Assembly (NCBI GenBank): GCA_963664305.2
Contig: CAXXLV010000002.1
Span: 832,001 to 896,000 of the forward strand
Length of the DNA stretch: 64,000 bases
Source: an uncultured Aliarcobacter sp.
GTDB lineage: Bacteria; Campylobacterota; Campylobacteria; Campylobacterales; Arcobacteraceae
Direction of reading: 5' to 3'
Shown here: one piece after another, positions 42,001 through 48,000 of the stretch
Position numbering within the stretch: the first letter of the stretch is position 1
Layout: each line of letters begins with the position of its first letter
Made by a program: the position numbers

Positions 42001-45000
42001 AACACTATTAAATATCCATAAAAAAGATATTGATTTTACACATGATTTAATAACACTAAAAGACTTCAAAAATAATAGTACATATAAAGCTTTTTTAACT
42101 GATGATTTAAAAGAGCTTCTAGAGAAAAGAGTAAATTCTTTAAAACCAAATGATATGCTTTTTACATCAAATCCAGAAAGAAGATTAAGAGCTAAACTAG
42201 ATGAACTTTTTAACAAAGATATCAATGACAACGATAGAAAAAATAAAATTGTATTTCACTCTTTAAGACATACTTTTGCGAGTCATTTAGCTATTAATGG
42301 AACACCTATTTTCACAATTCAAAAACTTATGAATCATAAAGATATAAGAATGACTTTGAGATATGCTAAATTAAGTCCTGATAGTGGTAGAGAAGCTGTT
42401 AAGAACTTAAGATTATAAACTATAAAAAAGAATAAATTTAAAATTTATCTTTTAAATTAATTATTCTTTTACAAAACTTCTTCTAAATCTTTAAATTCTT
42501 TCAAAATATATTTTGAGCTATCAATATTATAAGATTTTGATGAATTATTATATTCCAAAAGTATAATTTTTCTTAACTCAGGGAATAACTCATCATCTAA
42601 AGGTCTAAAATCATATTCATCTCCATCCAGTAAACAATACTTATTATTATTTATTTCTAGAATTCTTGATTTTTCATTTAATGAAAAGAATTTATTCTTA
42701 TCACTACATATCATTGTCACATTATTTGAAAGTAATATTTCTTTCAGATTTTTCGAAATATTAAAATCATATGAATAAGTTAAATGGTAATTTTTTATTT
42801 CCGATATATCTCTTTGGCTAGGTAAATATTTTGTATAATCATAAAAATTTAATTCTGGAAAAATAGAAAAAATATTAATCTTTTCACTATCACTAGGTAT
42901 AACTATTGAATATTCATCTACATATGATTTTAATATTTTTTTTATATCACTATGTAACTCAAATTTATATTCATCTTTCTCCCAAGGAATGTCAGAAAGT
43001 CCATTTAATCTAACGGCAGGTTCTAATGAATTATTTTTTGCATGAATTAATAATTTTAGAATATCAAATACTAAAATATTCATAAAATTTTCTTTATCTT
43101 CAAAAAACCATTGAGTGTTATTTTTTCTATAATTATTATAATTTGTTGGTGCATTATAAAAACAAAAATCAATACACGTACCAGCATATTTACATGTATT
43201 AATAATATTAGAACTTTTATGAGGGGCAAGGTATAACATTCCAATTAAATATTTTTCATAAAGATTAGAAGGATTACCATATTTAAAATCTTTATATAAT
43301 CTTCCATATCTATCAAAATAACCTAATACATGATTATTAATATTTTTATTTTTAGTAAAATAGTTTTTCTTTTTAGAAAAATTCTTTGGTAAAGATAATT
43401 TTGGAAAAATTTCTTTTTTTAATTTAGAGAATTCTTCTCTTCTAATCTCTCTAATCCCCATTTTTTATTATCCTTTTTATTATATATAATTCTAACTCTT
43501 TATTTTCACAATACACATAACAACCTTTCATTCCTCTAGTCATTAATGTTCTATATGTATTTTTGATTATGTTATCAATTTTAGTTTCTATTTCAACTAC
43601 TTTTTGAGTGTTTTTAGTTTTTTTGGCATCTTTTAATTGACCTTTATAGCCTTTTAAAGATTGGTCAGTTTTTGCTCTTTTATCTGGATTTGTAACTATT
43701 TTTCTATTTTCATAAGTTAAATCTTCTCCAATAATTACACCGATATAATCTACTTCTAATCCTTGACAAGTATGAATACAACCAATTTGTTCAACTGATT
43801 GTGGGCTAATTATCCAAAGACTTCCATCAATGGATAAATTCCATTGCATCTCAAATCCATATTTAGGAAGGATTATATCCATAGCCTTTGAATCTTTTTT
43901 ACTTTCCCAATTCCAACAATATCCTGCAACTAATCTAGCTTTATTATTAATTTTATTTTTCTCATAGATAGCATCTTTTAAATCATTTGGATTATCAAAT
44001 ACTTTAAAATCATATTCATTTAAATCTATAGTAGTGTTTGCAGTTTCTCTAATTTGTAATAGATTATCTAACCATGCTAAATAACCATCAGAGCCATTAC
44101 ATCTAAATTGAGATGTTAATTCCACTACTTCAACATTAGCATCATAATATTCAGCCCATTTTTTAATTTCAGATTCTTCACCAATATCATTAAAAGTTAC
44201 AGTTTGGTCTTCATCTAAAAAGAATATTACTGATTTAGAAGAGTAAATAGCTTCTTTGATTTGATTTTCACCAAGATTTCCATAAAGACCAGATTTTTCA
44301 TTCATTCTATGTGCTTCATCAATGATTAAACAATCATAAGAATTTTCTTCACAATCTACAAATGAGCCAGAGCCAGTAAATAGATTTGAGATTTCTGTTT
44401 TTTTCAAAGTTCCAGTTAGTTTTGATTCGTATACAGCTCTTGGTGCAGAGTTTTTACTAACATATCTTGAATTAAATCCTTTTTTTGTAAGTTCTACTAA
44501 AAGGTTAATTGCAATTACTGATTTTCCAGTCCCTGGTCCTCCATGAACAATTAAAACATTTTTATTTGTAGTATCTGATTTTCTAGCAAGTTCTAATGCA
44601 GATTCATAAACAATTTTTTGATTATCAATCATTGTAAATTCTTCATTACCTTTTATCATTGAAGCCATTGAATCAGCTAATGATTTAGAAGGTCTAATTT
44701 CACTTTTATCAATTTTATTCATCACATCATTTACATCACCATAAACAATATGTGAAGATATAAATTCAATTAGATTACTTCGTTCACCTTTTATAAATAC
44801 GGGAGCTTTAAATAAATAGTTCTTATAAAAATCATTTTTTAATACATCATCATTTGAATAATTATGTAAATATGCACAAGGAACTAACGAAATATTTTCA
44901 TCATTAACTACTTTGTTAAATCCTTCAAGCAATTTTACATATGACCAAGCTTGATATGATGGATGAGTAGTTTCTCTTAAGCCTCCACCTAAAATAGTTT

Positions 45001-48000
45001 TAATAACACCATCTTTTGAAGTAAGCTTTGATTCACTCCATTGTTTTAATTCAATGATAACTACTTTATCATTTCTATTTTCATCTTGACCAGATACAAT
45101 TAAATCTATTCTATTTCCAGTTCTTGGAATATTATATTCAATAGAGATATTTGAATCATTTGGTATCTTATCACAATATAAAACTTTAGCCATTTCATTT
45201 AAAGAGTTTTTCCATGAAATATATTCATTTTTTGGAGTATTTCTACCAAGATTAACTTCAACTGCATTTGCAATAATATCTTCAATTTCAATATCATTTA
45301 CTAATACATCTTCTAAAAATTCTTTTTTTGTTTTTTTATAAATAATCATTTTATTAATTCTTTTAATCTTTTTGTAACATTATCATTAACAGCATAAACT
45401 AATAAACCTTTTTTGGCTCTAGTCATTAATGTAATATAAATATTCCTAATCTCTATTTCTGTAGGTTTATCTTTGTCTTTATAATTTTGAGGTAAATAAA
45501 TAAATTTACCATTTTGATAATCTATGTCAGAACCTAAAATTAGACCAATATAATCATATTCTATCCCTTGTGCAGTGTAAATACAAGCAACTTCATTTAA
45601 TGAGTTATCTAAATAAAAACTTTTATAATTTTTTGTTTTTAATAAATTTTTATTATTCCATGCTTTAGACCAAGCATCTTTTTCAATATAAATATCTAAA
45701 GGTAAGGATCCATCACTTTTAGGTTCATTCCATTCCCAAGTAAATCCTGCAATAAGTTTTTTATTTGTATAGTTATTAAGCTCATTTTCTAAAATATTTA
45801 TATTATCAAATATTGAAACTGAAAATTCATTTGTATTTTTATAAAGTGTGGGATTTATAAATAGATTATAAACCCAATCTTCGTAGAAGTTTTGTCCTTT
45901 ACTTCTTAATTGAAATCTTAATTTCTCATAAATGATGGTTTTATTAATTAATTGCTTTTTTATATCATCTACATTAATACCTTTTGCAGATATTTTTTGA
46001 AAATCATCAATTAGTAAAATTAAATTTTTACATTTATTTGATAATTCAACTAGTTCTTGTTTTGTTAATCTATGTGCTTCATCAACAATAATAAAATCGT
46101 ATAAAGTATTGTTTTGAGTAATTGAATATGAATGAAAAATAGGAAATTTATTATGTTTTGAAGTATGGTATAAAAATGAAGAAGGTATAGTTAAAACTAC
46201 ATTTTTTTTTAATTTAATTAATTCTACTAAAAGTTTATATCCTACAACTGTTTTACCACTTCCTGCTCTTCCATCCAGAATAAAAATATTATTTTGTCTA
46301 TTTTTATTTTGTAATACTTTTGAATAAAAAACTCTTTGCTTATCTATAATATTTATACTAAAGTCATCATTCATTAAATTGTTTACATAATCAATAATTG
46401 ATGGAGTTGGTATTAATTGCTTTTCAATCAGACATTTTAAAAGACCTTTTTCTTTACTTTTTTCTATTTCAAATGAAACTAAATTGGCATATAGAAAATC
46501 TCTAAATTTATTTTTTGTAATTTTCGAAAATGAATATTCAGAAAATTTTTTACAATTTAATAATAAATTATTCTGAATTTCTGTATCTATATTATGTAAA
46601 TAAGAACAATACAAAGAACTTATACCTTTACTTCCATAAAAAAAATCTATTAATGATTGGCTATATTCTTTTGCTTGTAATGTAGGATGAATATATTCTT
46701 TTAAATCATGATTAGGAATTATAAAATCTTTTATTGATTCTCTAATAGTCCATTGTTTTAATTCAATTACAATAGAACAATTTTTACCAACTAATAAAAC
46801 ATCAATTCTTTTATCTATAAATTTTAAATGATATTCAATAAATATGTATAAATTAGTTTTATTTTCTAGAAGTGAAAGAATTTTTGCCAATTCAGGTAAT
46901 GATTTTTTCCAAGATTTAAATTCTTCTGTATTCTTATTCTTGAAATTTTCTAAAATATTAAATATAGATCCACTCTCTATATCTTTTAAAAAGATTTCGA
47001 TTGTATTTGAATAATAAGCCACTTATAACTCCGAATATTTTTTTGCATTACCTTTAGACTTTTCAACTGGATATTTTTTTTCAAATTTTTCTAATTTATC
47101 ATAAATTGCTTCTTCTAAATTAATATCAAATTTCATACATAATCTTAAAAGATATATTGAAATATCTGCAATTTCTTCTTTTAAATGTTCATGTTTTTTT
47201 TCATCAAGGTTATATGATTGTTCTTCAGTAAGCCATTGAAATATTTCTAATAATTCTGCAGATTCTTTTGCTAACGCCATTGAGAGATTTTTAGGAGAAT
47301 GAAATTGATTCCAATCTCGTTCATCTGATATTTTTTTTAATAGAGTTTGTATATTTTTTGTATTCAAAAAAAACCTTTTATAAAATATAAAATATTGTAC
47401 TAAATATAATATCTTATTGTCAACGAAGATACTAAATATAAGCCTATTTGAAAAAACTATTCAAAAGTTATTATAAAATCTAGAATCTATCTTTTAGATT
47501 CTTATAAATTTTATCTTTTTCCCTTTTTCCAACACTCAATACTAAAACAACTATCTCTTCATCCTTAACTTGATAAGCAAGTCTATATCCAACATTTCTT
47601 AGTTTTATTTTATAAACATTTTCATATCCACTTAGTTTATCTTTTTCTACTTTTGGATTTTCTAATCTCTCTTCTAATTTCTTTTTAAATTGTTCTTTTA
47701 TTGTTGAGCCTAATTTACTCCACTCTTTTAAAGCTTGAGGTTTAAATTCAAGATTATAAGTCATCTAAACTTACTTTAACTGGTTTTTCACCATCATTTA
47801 AAGCTTTTCCTACTTCTAATGACAAATGATAATCATCTATAATATCCATCATTTTTTCATATAATTTACTTGGAACTAGATATGCACTAGGGATATTATG
47901 ATTTAATATTGCTATAACTTCATTATCAGCTTCATTGAGTAATTGTGTAGGAGATTTTTTAAGTTCTGTTATACTCGCACTATAATTTGCTAAAATTGGT

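Follow-up and report, generated by a model that had tools for sequence, protein, structure and literature searches.

A minus-strand operon of four abutting genes, at positions 42469-47367 of the window (the whole 64,000-nucleotide stretch of an uncultured Aliarcobacter sp. that was analysed), probably encodes an anti-phage system. Its core, which consists of a DCTPP1-like MazG pyrophosphatase and a nuclease-helicase (helB632), is a horizontally mobile two-gene cassette that occurs across bacterial and archaeal phyla, and the other two genes encode a second nuclease-helicase (helA558) and a GP88-family protein. In the explanation that we favour, which as a whole is given a somewhat better than even chance of being correct, the four genes make up a single operon within an accessory island that is bounded by integrases, and the core most likely counters phages or other foreign DNA much as the single-protein nuclease-helicases Nhi and Nhi-like do. 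The operon and its flanks contain the following features.

41285..42418, plus strand: tyrosine integrase (Pfam Phage_integrase, 1.4e-29)
42469..43461, minus strand: GP88-family protein, 330 aa (Pfam GP88)
43451..45349, minus strand: helB632, 632 aa, the canonical cassette helicase (Pfam SLFN-g3_helicase)
45346..47022, minus strand: helA558, 558 aa, GTG start (Pfam SLFN-g3_helicase and NERD)
47023..47367, minus strand: MazG/DCTPP1-like all-alpha NTP pyrophosphatase, 114 aa, TTG start (Pfam MazG-like)
47394..47423, minus strand: promoter-like site TTGACA-18-TACAAT, 11 of 12 consensus matches
47480..47764, minus strand: ParE toxin (Pfam ParE_toxin, 7.8e-16)
47754..48005, minus strand: Phd/YefM antitoxin (Pfam PhdYeFM, 2.1e-9)
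48371..48829, plus strand: integrase fragment, 152 aa (Pfam)
48889..52224, plus strand: NACHT NTPase, 1111 aa (Pfam NACHT, 1.9e-8)

Along the minus strand, the successive genes from MazG to GP88 are spaced by 0, -4 and -11 bp. The promoter-like site lies within the 112-bp spacer immediately upstream of the MazG start and is a consensus match alone, such sites being fewer in the region (42) than in shuffled sequence (mean 53). The Phd/YefM-ParE pair, beside which a perfect sigma-70-like site is found at 48061..48032, is located upstream of the operon on the same strand, and the tyrosine integrase gene is convergent with the 3' end of the operon, the surrounding island being low in G+C and bounded by integrases. 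The context segment 48371..52224, which comprises the integrase fragment and the NACHT gene, gave a weak EruA P-loop match in NCBIfam.

MazG matches the Pfam family MazG-like (PF12643) at 7.5e-15, with 55.4 bits against a cut-off of 27, and over nearly all of its 114 residues it resembles an archaeal pyrophosphatase (PDB 4qgp, 8.6e-22) and mammalian DCTPP1/RS21-C6 (6sqw and 2a3q, both 6.3e-21; 7mu5), the range being 6e-21 to 9e-22. The shared elements are the EXXE...EXXD metal motifs, a DW.QFH.P.NL block and a C-terminal KYP...G..KY tail. Among 56 MazG sequences, R17, W19, F22, H23, E35, E38, E41, W45, E65, D68, K91, Y99, P100, G106 and K110 are invariant, and with its metal ligands (E35, E38, E41, E65 and D68) thus preserved, the enzyme looks active. 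DCTPP1 prefers dCTP and 5-modified dCTP. Unlike DCTPP1, the MazG described here shares its operon with nuclease-helicases, and the DNA that carries it is mobile.

helB632 comprises a PD-(D/E)xK nuclease domain (residues 1 to about 205) followed by a DUF2075/Schlafen-group-3 SF1 helicase domain (residues 263-615; Pfam SLFN-g3_helicase, PF09848, 1.8e-102). The nuclease fold is supported by an AF2 model of residues 1-255 (pLDDT 91), for which VIA-align ranked 1xmx first (Z 8.3, rmsd 3.1, 131 aligned), followed by Can2, Cdn1, Card1 and type II restriction enzymes, with SLFN11 and SLFN12 at only Z 5.2 and 4.9. Across 42 sequences, the nuclease residues D82, E100, K102, Q133 and Y137 do not vary, nor do Walker A (G270-K276) and Walker B (D344-E345-A346-H347) among the relatives, and from these D/E/K, QxxxY and Walker motifs both activities look intact. 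helA558, which is 28% identical to helB632, likewise joins an N-terminal nuclease to a DUF2075 helicase in one polypeptide (SLFN-g3_helicase 4.9e-45; NERD 4.4e-5) and keeps D..ELKQW, QxxxY, Walker A (GSGKT) and Walker B (DEAH), the Walker motifs of the two helicases reading GPGTGKS/GSGKT and DEAH. A NERD match was obtained for helA558 and for four of 37 helB relatives, and only four representatives among 1.84 billion are more than 40% identical to helA558.

AddAB and AdnAB are heterodimeric helicase-nucleases whose paralogous subunits each contain an SF1 motor and a RecB-type nuclease with QxxxY. helA558 and helB632 are similarly two paralogous nuclease-helicases, with the domain order reversed (nuclease N-terminal); AdnA was matched in Foldseek at E 0.15 only, and the pairing of helA558 with helB632, like any physical complex within the system, is putative. 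Among PADLOC models, helB632 gave weak matches to AbiO (8.7e-16), PDC-S41 (7.6e-15) and Nhi (6e-14), those to AbiO and Nhi covering the helicase core only; helA558 matched Nhi (PDLC02372) at 3.4e-17 over residues 21-420, and neither MazG nor GP88 had a PADLOC match. The weakness of the Nhi and AbiO matches was counted against a defence role. The four co-directional, abutting reading frames with their Pfam domains, the DCTPP1-like character of MazG and the same weak PADLOC values for helB632, all given in a preliminary description of this DNA, were recovered in the present analysis.

Nhi (S. epidermidis SERP2475; bioRxiv 10.1101/776245) is a single-gene defence with an N-terminal PD-(D/E)xK-type nuclease and a DUF2075/SF1B helicase, and Nhi-like (Millman et al., bioRxiv 10.1101/2022.05.11.491447) has the same make-up in a single gene. 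In the study of Millman et al., 45 candidates were tested, of which 21 protected, and its main text names neither MazG nor a pyrophosphatase. With these systems, the locus shares a nuclease and helicase in one protein, occurrence in defence islands and on plasmids, and horizontal spread. In contrast, they work as single genes, whereas the helicase described here almost always has a DCTPP1-like gene upstream as its partner, the locus contains a pair of paralogous helicases together with GP88, and the PADLOC similarity is weak (3e-17 and 6e-14). Animal Schlafen proteins of group 3 (SLFN5/11/13) belong to the same helicase family (PF09848, 1.8e-102 for helB632) and carry a Schlafen core N-terminally in place of the PD-(D/E)xK nuclease; at the sequence level, no match was obtained in the PDB. 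For a functional link between SLFN and DCTPP1 in animals, the literature search gave co-mentions only among the matches listed.

In a GTDB scan with helB632, at least 523 confirmed relatives were found, and locus counts were made on the best 80 of these, which are 47-63% identical and span Bacillota, Bacteroidota, Burkholderiales and CPR. Of the 79 such loci with a helicase ORF, 65 contain MazG, as does L023, in which the helicase is cut off by the contig end; this agrees with the 523 relatives and 66 of 80 loci reported previously. In 60 of the 65, MazG immediately precedes the helicase in the same orientation, with a gap of at most 35 bp in 58 of these, and it is downstream in three and on the opposite strand in two. 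Six of the 14 loci without MazG have less than 400 bp of upstream DNA, and among loci with upstream DNA the gene is missing in 8 of 73. Furthermore, pairwise distances of MazG and helicase correlate (r = 0.83, a value reached by 0 of 999 permutations). These data support a conserved genomic partnership of MazG with the nuclease-DUF2075 helicase, as proposed earlier; defence against phage, binding of the two proteins to each other and action of the pyrophosphatase on modified dNTPs are putative.

The cassette is horizontally mobile. No flanking gene family is common to more than eight of the best 80 loci, 70 plasmid records (including archaeal ones) hold a relative, only one of 43 other genomes of the genus has a helicase match (partial, 34%), and the helicase occurs in 3 of 401 Campylobacterota sampled. 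This distribution bears on a reading in which the genes form a housekeeping or SOS-linked module for DNA damage and nucleotide sanitation, MazG cleaning non-canonical dNTPs and the nuclease-helicase processing damaged or stalled forks, like animal DCTPP1 and SLFN11. The high conservation of the relatives, unusual for a defence gene at about 50-60% identity across phyla, favours this reading, as do the repair and nucleotide genes near some loci (UvrB, OGG, ExoVII, MutT, NrdD), both points being counted against a defence role. It is also favoured by the C-terminal LexA-type Peptidase_S24 domain in 8 of 8 tested long-form helB relatives (long forms being 37 of 79), which points to RecA/ssDNA signalling; the matches are at 3e-18 (P0034), 7e-9 (L019) and, in 6 of 6 Burkholderiales tails, 6e-7 to 3e-4. 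However, Pfam gave no Peptidase_S24 match for helA558 or helB632, which are 558 and 632 aa long, synteny is not conserved, the genes are plasmid-borne elsewhere and sit here on an integrase-bounded, low-G+C island, and they are absent from 42 of 43 genus genomes and 398 of 401 Campylobacterota. The view that housekeeping is as likely as defence is accordingly not upheld for this lineage, in which the unit is accessory and mobile, and we regard such a module as improbable.

The neighbourhood of the pair weighs in the same direction. By manual classification of Pfam matches within two ORFs, a restriction, nuclease, toxin-antitoxin or transposase family is found at 43 of 78 loci, and HNH_2, HNH_4, DUF3427, GmrSD, McrB_N or Mrr at 19 of 78. 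In a control on 43 of these loci, ORFs at distances above 5 kb gave only 9-10 loci and 1 locus, respectively, versus 24 and 9 for adjacent ORFs. The neighbours are thus enriched for restriction genes, especially those targeting modified DNA; a Priestia plasmid, for example, has the order REase, MutT, DUF3578, MazG, DUF2075, type I RM. Counted against a defence role were the lack of a defence-type neighbour at about 45% of loci and the finding of no MazG-helicase fusion in 10 relatives of greater length or in the 120 listed ones of similar length.

A possible mechanism was proposed for the favoured explanation. The SF1 motor, joined to the N-terminal PD-(D/E)xK nuclease, would load on foreign or replicating DNA and degrade it, and the DCTPP1-like enzyme would hydrolyse dCTP-type nucleotides, preferably 5-modified dCTP, which could starve phages that build modified-cytosine DNA. 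Alternatively, hydrolysis may block the salvage of modified dCMP from DNA breakdown into host DNA, where it would be attacked by the neighbouring modification-dependent nucleases. A different division of labour is conceivable, in which the nuclease-helicase is a self-toxic effector of abortive infection that MazG keeps in check, or whose trigger it sets, through hydrolysis of a nucleotide cofactor or signal rather than by acting on the phage nucleotide pool. Translation begins with MazG, which is tightly coupled to the helicase, one Nhi homologue was toxic when induced, and the S24 tails of relatives suggest a triggered switch. On the other hand, the DCTPP1 substrate and metal motifs are complete in MazG and agree better with a (d)CTP-type substrate than with a signal, the family is not known to be toxic, and the 8 of 73 loci without MazG indicate that the helicase can exist without it. 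This toxin-antidote arrangement is considered marginally less probable even than the housekeeping module.

GP88 matches the Pfam family GP88 (PF17338) at 1.7e-21 (77.6 bits against a cut-off of 24.4) and phrog_1617 at 1e-29, and the family is phage-typical. Its AF2 model (pLDDT 83, pTM 0.87) folds as a partial barrel with weak similarity to radical-SAM enzymes, which fill most of the top 19 VIA-align rows at Z 5.9-4.4, under the tool's trust level of Z 8 (6fz6, Z 5.9, rmsd 5.8, 194 aligned; 3c8f, Z 5.9, rmsd 4.8, 170 aligned); Foldseek returned nothing at E <= 0.001. The invariant triad C90/C96/C100 has the spacing Cx5Cx3C, and GP88 is a putative iron-sulfur-like protein. The canonical radical-SAM motif CX3CX2C was ruled out by this spacing, and no Radical_SAM match was found in Pfam.

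Whether all four genes belong together depends on how GP88 and helA558 are viewed. It is possible, at a probability well short of even, that MazG and helB632 alone form the unit, helA558 being a separate Nhi-like single-gene defence that landed between them and GP88 a phage-derived passenger, so that no four-part system would exist. GP88 is absent from all of the best 80 loci (of at least 523), and its homologues in six further Arcobacteraceae genomes occur by themselves amid unrelated genes; both points were counted against the favoured explanation. Another DUF2075 gene occurs in only one of these 80 loci and is unrelated by BLAST. helA558 fits the PADLOC Nhi model over almost its whole length, has the NERD and DUF2075 make-up that a review gives for Nhi-like, and shares only 27-29% identity with the short helicases of two other genomes (G084 and G392), which makes the orthology of the second helicases doubtful and was counted against the favoured explanation. 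Against such independent stacking, helA558 sits between MazG and helB632 at spacings of 0 and -4 bp and would therefore need to be expressed together with both, and two adjacent helicase paralogues are present in all three helicase-bearing Campylobacterota genomes.

Among the 401 Campylobacterota, one further genome has two helicases, and another, G084, repeats all four genes with overlapping reading frames in the order MazG, 515-aa helicase, GP88, 597-aa helicase. Because GP88 is only 27% and helB 51% identical between G084 and the window, the four-gene association is taken to be old. Under the favoured explanation, the operon of this Campylobacterota variant would have gained two components: helA558, a divergent nuclease-helicase that probably provides a second subunit with motor and nuclease, and GP88, radical-SAM-like and of phage origin, probably an accessory enzyme for which DNA or nucleotides are the substrate. 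The new observation is that MazG and the helicase are accompanied by a second helicase and GP88 in one more Campylobacterota family as well, where the genes are ordered differently; these two genes, previously treated as incidental, may be real add-ons to the pair.

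The operon consists of four minus-strand ORFs with successive spacings of 0, -4 and -11 bp, which encode a MazG-like protein, two paralogous nuclease-helicases of the SLFN-g3_helicase (DUF2075) family, namely helA558 (558 aa) and the core protein helB632 (632 aa), and a GP88-family protein. The operon and its flanks are arranged in the window as follows.

41285..42418, plus strand, tyrosine integrase (flank; Pfam)
42469..43461, minus strand, GP88 ORF, 330 aa (Pfam GP88, 1.7e-21)
43451..45349, minus strand, helB632 ORF, 632 aa (Pfam SLFN-g3_helicase, 1.8e-102)
45346..47022, minus strand, helA558 ORF, 558 aa (Pfam SLFN-g3_helicase, 4.9e-45; NERD, 4.4e-5)
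47023..47367, minus strand, MazG-like ORF, 114 aa (Pfam MazG-like, 7.5e-15)
112-bp spacer before MazG, putative promoter-like site, TTGACA-18-TACAAT, near-consensus and recognized by consensus match only
47480..48005, minus strand, Phd/ParE pair (flank; Pfam)
48371..48829, plus strand, integrase fragment, 152 aa (flank; Pfam)
48889..52224, plus strand, NACHT protein, 1111 aa (flank; Pfam)

The ORFs, the Pfam matches and a PADLOC re-run agree with the operon composition given in the preliminary description; PADLOC again returned the weak hits quoted there for the operon and no hit for its MazG and GP88. The G+C content is 0.19-0.28 across 41-55 kb of the window and 0.25-0.34 in the preceding region. 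The integrase fragment, flanked by the toxin-antitoxin pair and the NACHT gene, matches the phage-integrase domain in its C-terminal two-thirds only, and this remnant suggests successive insertions at the site. The NACHT NTPase has a single NCBIfam match, to the P-loop of the antiphage protein EruA, which at 1.7e-8 falls far short of the cut-off. Its gene is adjoined by that of a 527-aa protein (52571-54154, minus strand) with no family match and a weak LPD25 similarity (1.1e-3), and both genes are on the low-G+C island of the operon. In addition, a 1981-aa Calx-beta protein is encoded at 34822-40767 (minus strand), and antisense ORFs at 39005, 39434 and 39863 within its gene are spaced by 429 bp, which points to tandem repeat units.

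In a scan of one genome per GTDB species, at least 523 relatives of helB632 were confirmed; the 80 best are 47-63% identical to it and occur in Bacillota, Bacteroidota, Burkholderiales, other Proteobacteria and CPR. Pair counts cover the 79 loci with a helicase ORF, the remaining locus (L023) having a MazG gene and a helicase that is cut off by the contig end. The proposal that MazG is the regular partner of the helicase was borne out by a MazG homolog in 65 of the 79 loci, directly upstream on the same strand in 60 (with a gap of at most 35 bp in 58 of these), downstream in three and on the opposite strand in two; it is missing from 14 loci, six of which have less than 400 bp of upstream DNA. 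Across 64 loci, pairwise MazG distances correlate with those of the helicase (r = 0.83, reached by none of 999 permutations), a correlation to which host kinship could contribute. Besides these two, no family is common to more than eight of the 80 loci. No MazG-helicase fusion was found among 10 longer hits or the best 120 of 8000 near-length hits, which is weak evidence. A housekeeping role, previously regarded as being as likely as defense, does not hold in this lineage, where the helicase is found in one of 43 other species genomes of the genus (a partial 34% match only) and in three of 401 Campylobacterota genomes. Relatives are carried on 70 plasmid records, archaeal ones included, and on four of 50,697 phage records. 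The core pair is thus an accessory, horizontally moving cassette and no housekeeping gene of the window's lineage.

The surroundings of the pair were analyzed in 78 loci. Of the 283 ORFs situated up to two ORFs away, 281 were scanned (the two left out are very long), and neighbor classes were sorted by hand from Pfam names. A restriction, nuclease, toxin-antitoxin or transposase family lies beside the pair in 43 of the 78 loci, and HNH_2, HNH_4, DUF3427, GmrSD, McrB_N or Mrr_cat in 19. The latter families are typical of enzymes that cut modified DNA, and one HNH_2 neighbor matches TagI at 6e-4. As a control, 131 ORFs at a distance of over about 5 kb, which could still fall inside islands, were taken from 43 loci with full flanks; defense-type or mobile-element families occurred among them in 9-10 loci versus 24 for the adjacent ORFs of the same loci, and HNH-type families in one versus nine. 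About 45% of loci have no such neighbor, and some adjoin repair or nucleotide genes. On a Priestia plasmid, the order is restriction endonuclease, MutT, DUF3578, MazG, DUF2075 and type I RM. The occurrence of DUF2075 NTPases next to modification-dependent endonucleases was noted earlier in a published screen (PMC6765204). The idea that the pair helps a mobile element to replicate was rejected because most of the relatives' loci have no nearby integrase.

Two further arrangements recur next to the cassette. In the first, the genes of an HNH_4- or HNH_2-type endonuclease of about 320-380 aa and of a small nucleotide hydrolase of the HIT family form an adjacent pair, at L051:9862-11299, L068:9860-11292, L091:12364-13868, L040:10460-11847 and L059:6062-7506. 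This is a second combination of a nuclease with a nucleotide hydrolase, and in L063 the HIT gene precedes a NUDIX gene. The idea that HIT substitutes for MazG was rejected: both are present in L040, L051, L059, L063 and L068, and HIT without MazG was seen only in the Campylobacterota genome G392. A protein of about 1047 aa combining a PLD nuclease, a ResIII helicase and DUF3427 directly follows the cassette at L043:1019-4162, L057:9878-13021 and L072:10485-14333, the last version having additional methyltransferase and Peptidase_S24 domains.

Pfam gave no separate match for the N-terminal domain of helB632. Across 42 sequences, D82, E100, K102, Q133 and Y137 do not vary and form a D...ExK...QxxxY pattern, which is typical of RecB-type nucleases. 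VIA-align of an AlphaFold model of residues 1-255 (pLDDT 91) matched PD-(D/E)xK nucleases almost exclusively, with VC1899 as the best match (Z 8.3, rmsd 3.1, 131 aligned), followed by Can2 (Z 7.6), Cdn1 (7.5), Card1 (6.5) and then many restriction enzymes. Foldseek gave weak hits only, likewise to PD-(D/E)xK nucleases; against the PDB, it returned nothing at E <= 0.001 for this model or for the GP88 model, and phmmer of helB632 against PDB sequences returned none at 0.01. Walker A and DEAH are retained in the helicase core. The same motifs are retained in helA558, which is 28% identical to helB632. Only four relatives of helA558 exceed 40% identity among 1.84 billion cluster representatives and the remainder belong to the helB family at about 30%, so that helA558 is a rare, fast-diverged paralog.

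Long forms of at least 740 aa account for 37 of 79 helB632 relatives, and a C-terminal Peptidase_S24 (LexA/UmuD-type) domain was present in all eight long forms tested, as well as in many CPR proteins among the matches listed; the window helicases are without this tail. Examples are L017:9858-10439, L004:4958-5503, L019:40-2283 and residues 643-751 of the relative P0034. The tail suggests that the activity of the long relatives may be tied to RecA/ssDNA signaling through a self-cleavage switch.

The window MazG matches the solved structures of DCTPP1/RS21-C6 (6.3e-21) and the archaeal pyrophosphatase 4qgp (8.6e-22) over nearly its full length. An alignment of 56 MazG proteins from cassettes shows no variation in the acidic metal ligands E35, E38, E41, E65 and D68, nor in W19, F22, H23, W45 and the C-terminal Y99-P100...G106...K110. 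On the basis of homology and neighborhood only, it is proposed that this pyrophosphatase may handle modified dCTP.

All three helicase-bearing Campylobacterota genomes carry two adjacent paralogs. In G084, from another family of the order, the genes overlap and run in the order methyltransferase, 109-aa MazG, NERD+DUF2075 protein of 515 aa, 368-aa GP88 (Pfam 8.3e-17) and NERD+DUF2075 protein of 597 aa. GP88 is located between the helicases in G084 and after them in the window; therefore, the same four parts occur in another order. With identities to the window proteins of 45% (MazG), 51% (helB), 29% (helA) and 27% (GP88), the four-gene association is old and no recent copy. The G084 cassette (L090:12012-15638) comes immediately after the genes of NrdD, its radical-SAM activase and a small SAM methyltransferase, all on one strand. 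G392 encodes helB (625 aa), then a 526-aa paralog, with a divergent HNH_4 and HIT pair; MazG and GP88 are absent from this locus. Against a fixed four-part system, GP88 is found in none of the 80 best loci, its homologs in six other Arcobacteraceae genomes are solitary, with sensor kinases or selD-selA-selB as neighbors, and helA558 resembles the short helicases of G084 and G392 no more than it resembles helB. The four-gene form would be an undescribed variant.

The GP88 family is overwhelmingly viral: a homolog occurs in 25 phage records, the nearest Atlas clusters are 100% viruses, and BFVD matches reach as low as 1e-12. A metagenome scan gave only three loci, at 25% identity, and these were set aside. 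An invariant Cys triad (Cx5Cx3C) is accompanied by R151, N153, D157, D208 and others in 49 sequences. The top VIA-align matches of the GP88 model (pLDDT 83, pTM 0.87) are radical-SAM enzymes at Z 5.9-4.4, below the tool's trust level, and comprise a radical-SAM methyltransferase, PFL-activating enzyme, queuine lyase, spore photoproduct lyase, QueE and viperin; the canonical radical-SAM CX3CX2C motif is absent. The reading of GP88 as a radical-SAM-like Fe-S enzyme is a lead, not a finding. Stand-alone homologs (about 288 aa) lie beside the selenocysteine genes AIRS/SelD-like, SelA and SelB in two other Arcobacteraceae genomes (L110:1937-8686 and L111:2653-7883), and in two further ones between Cache-domain and PAS-domain histidine kinases.

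Nhi (bioRxiv 10.1101/776245) and Nhi-like (bioRxiv 10.1101/2022.05.11.491447) are single-gene nuclease-DUF2075 defenses, and a review table lists NERD for Nhi-like. The main text of the Nhi-like preprint reports 45 tested candidates, 21 of them protective, and mentions neither a pyrophosphatase nor MazG. No publication was found joining DUF2075 with MazG, Schlafen with MazG in a prokaryotic context, or Nhi-like with MazG; judged by title and abstract, none of the papers retrieved on MazG and anti-phage helicases or on DCTPP1 and bacteriophage concerned the pair. The core is a widespread, mobile cassette of a MazG/DCTPP1-like protein and a nuclease-helicase, to which a further nuclease-helicase, paralogous to the first, and a GP88 protein of phage type have been added in the window. 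A function against phages or foreign DNA, of the Nhi kind, is the reading to which we incline, by a modest preference.

A much bolder combined reading, which we consider improbable, takes the four genes as one system against modified-cytosine phages. Here, helA558 and helB632 would form a heteromeric, AddAB-like motor-nuclease, the DCTPP1-like enzyme would destroy the modified dCTP pool or bar salvaged modified nucleotides from host DNA, and the phage-derived, radical-SAM-like GP88 would act on modified DNA or nucleotides. This reading further holds that the MazG-helicase pair would be among the commonest unrecognized defense systems, in thousands of species, and it would point to a coupled prokaryotic module as the ancestor of Schlafen helicases and DCTPP1. 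Regarding the pair itself, if it defends, it would be a two-gene system of very wide occurrence (at least 523 species, and thousands by the count in the preliminary description) in which DNA degradation is joined to nucleotide-pool control. The four-gene form provides natural contrasts in the presence or absence of the second helicase and of GP88. Such a defensive pair would also offer a testable idea of what links a dCTP pyrophosphatase to nuclease-helicases and modified-DNA restriction enzymes.
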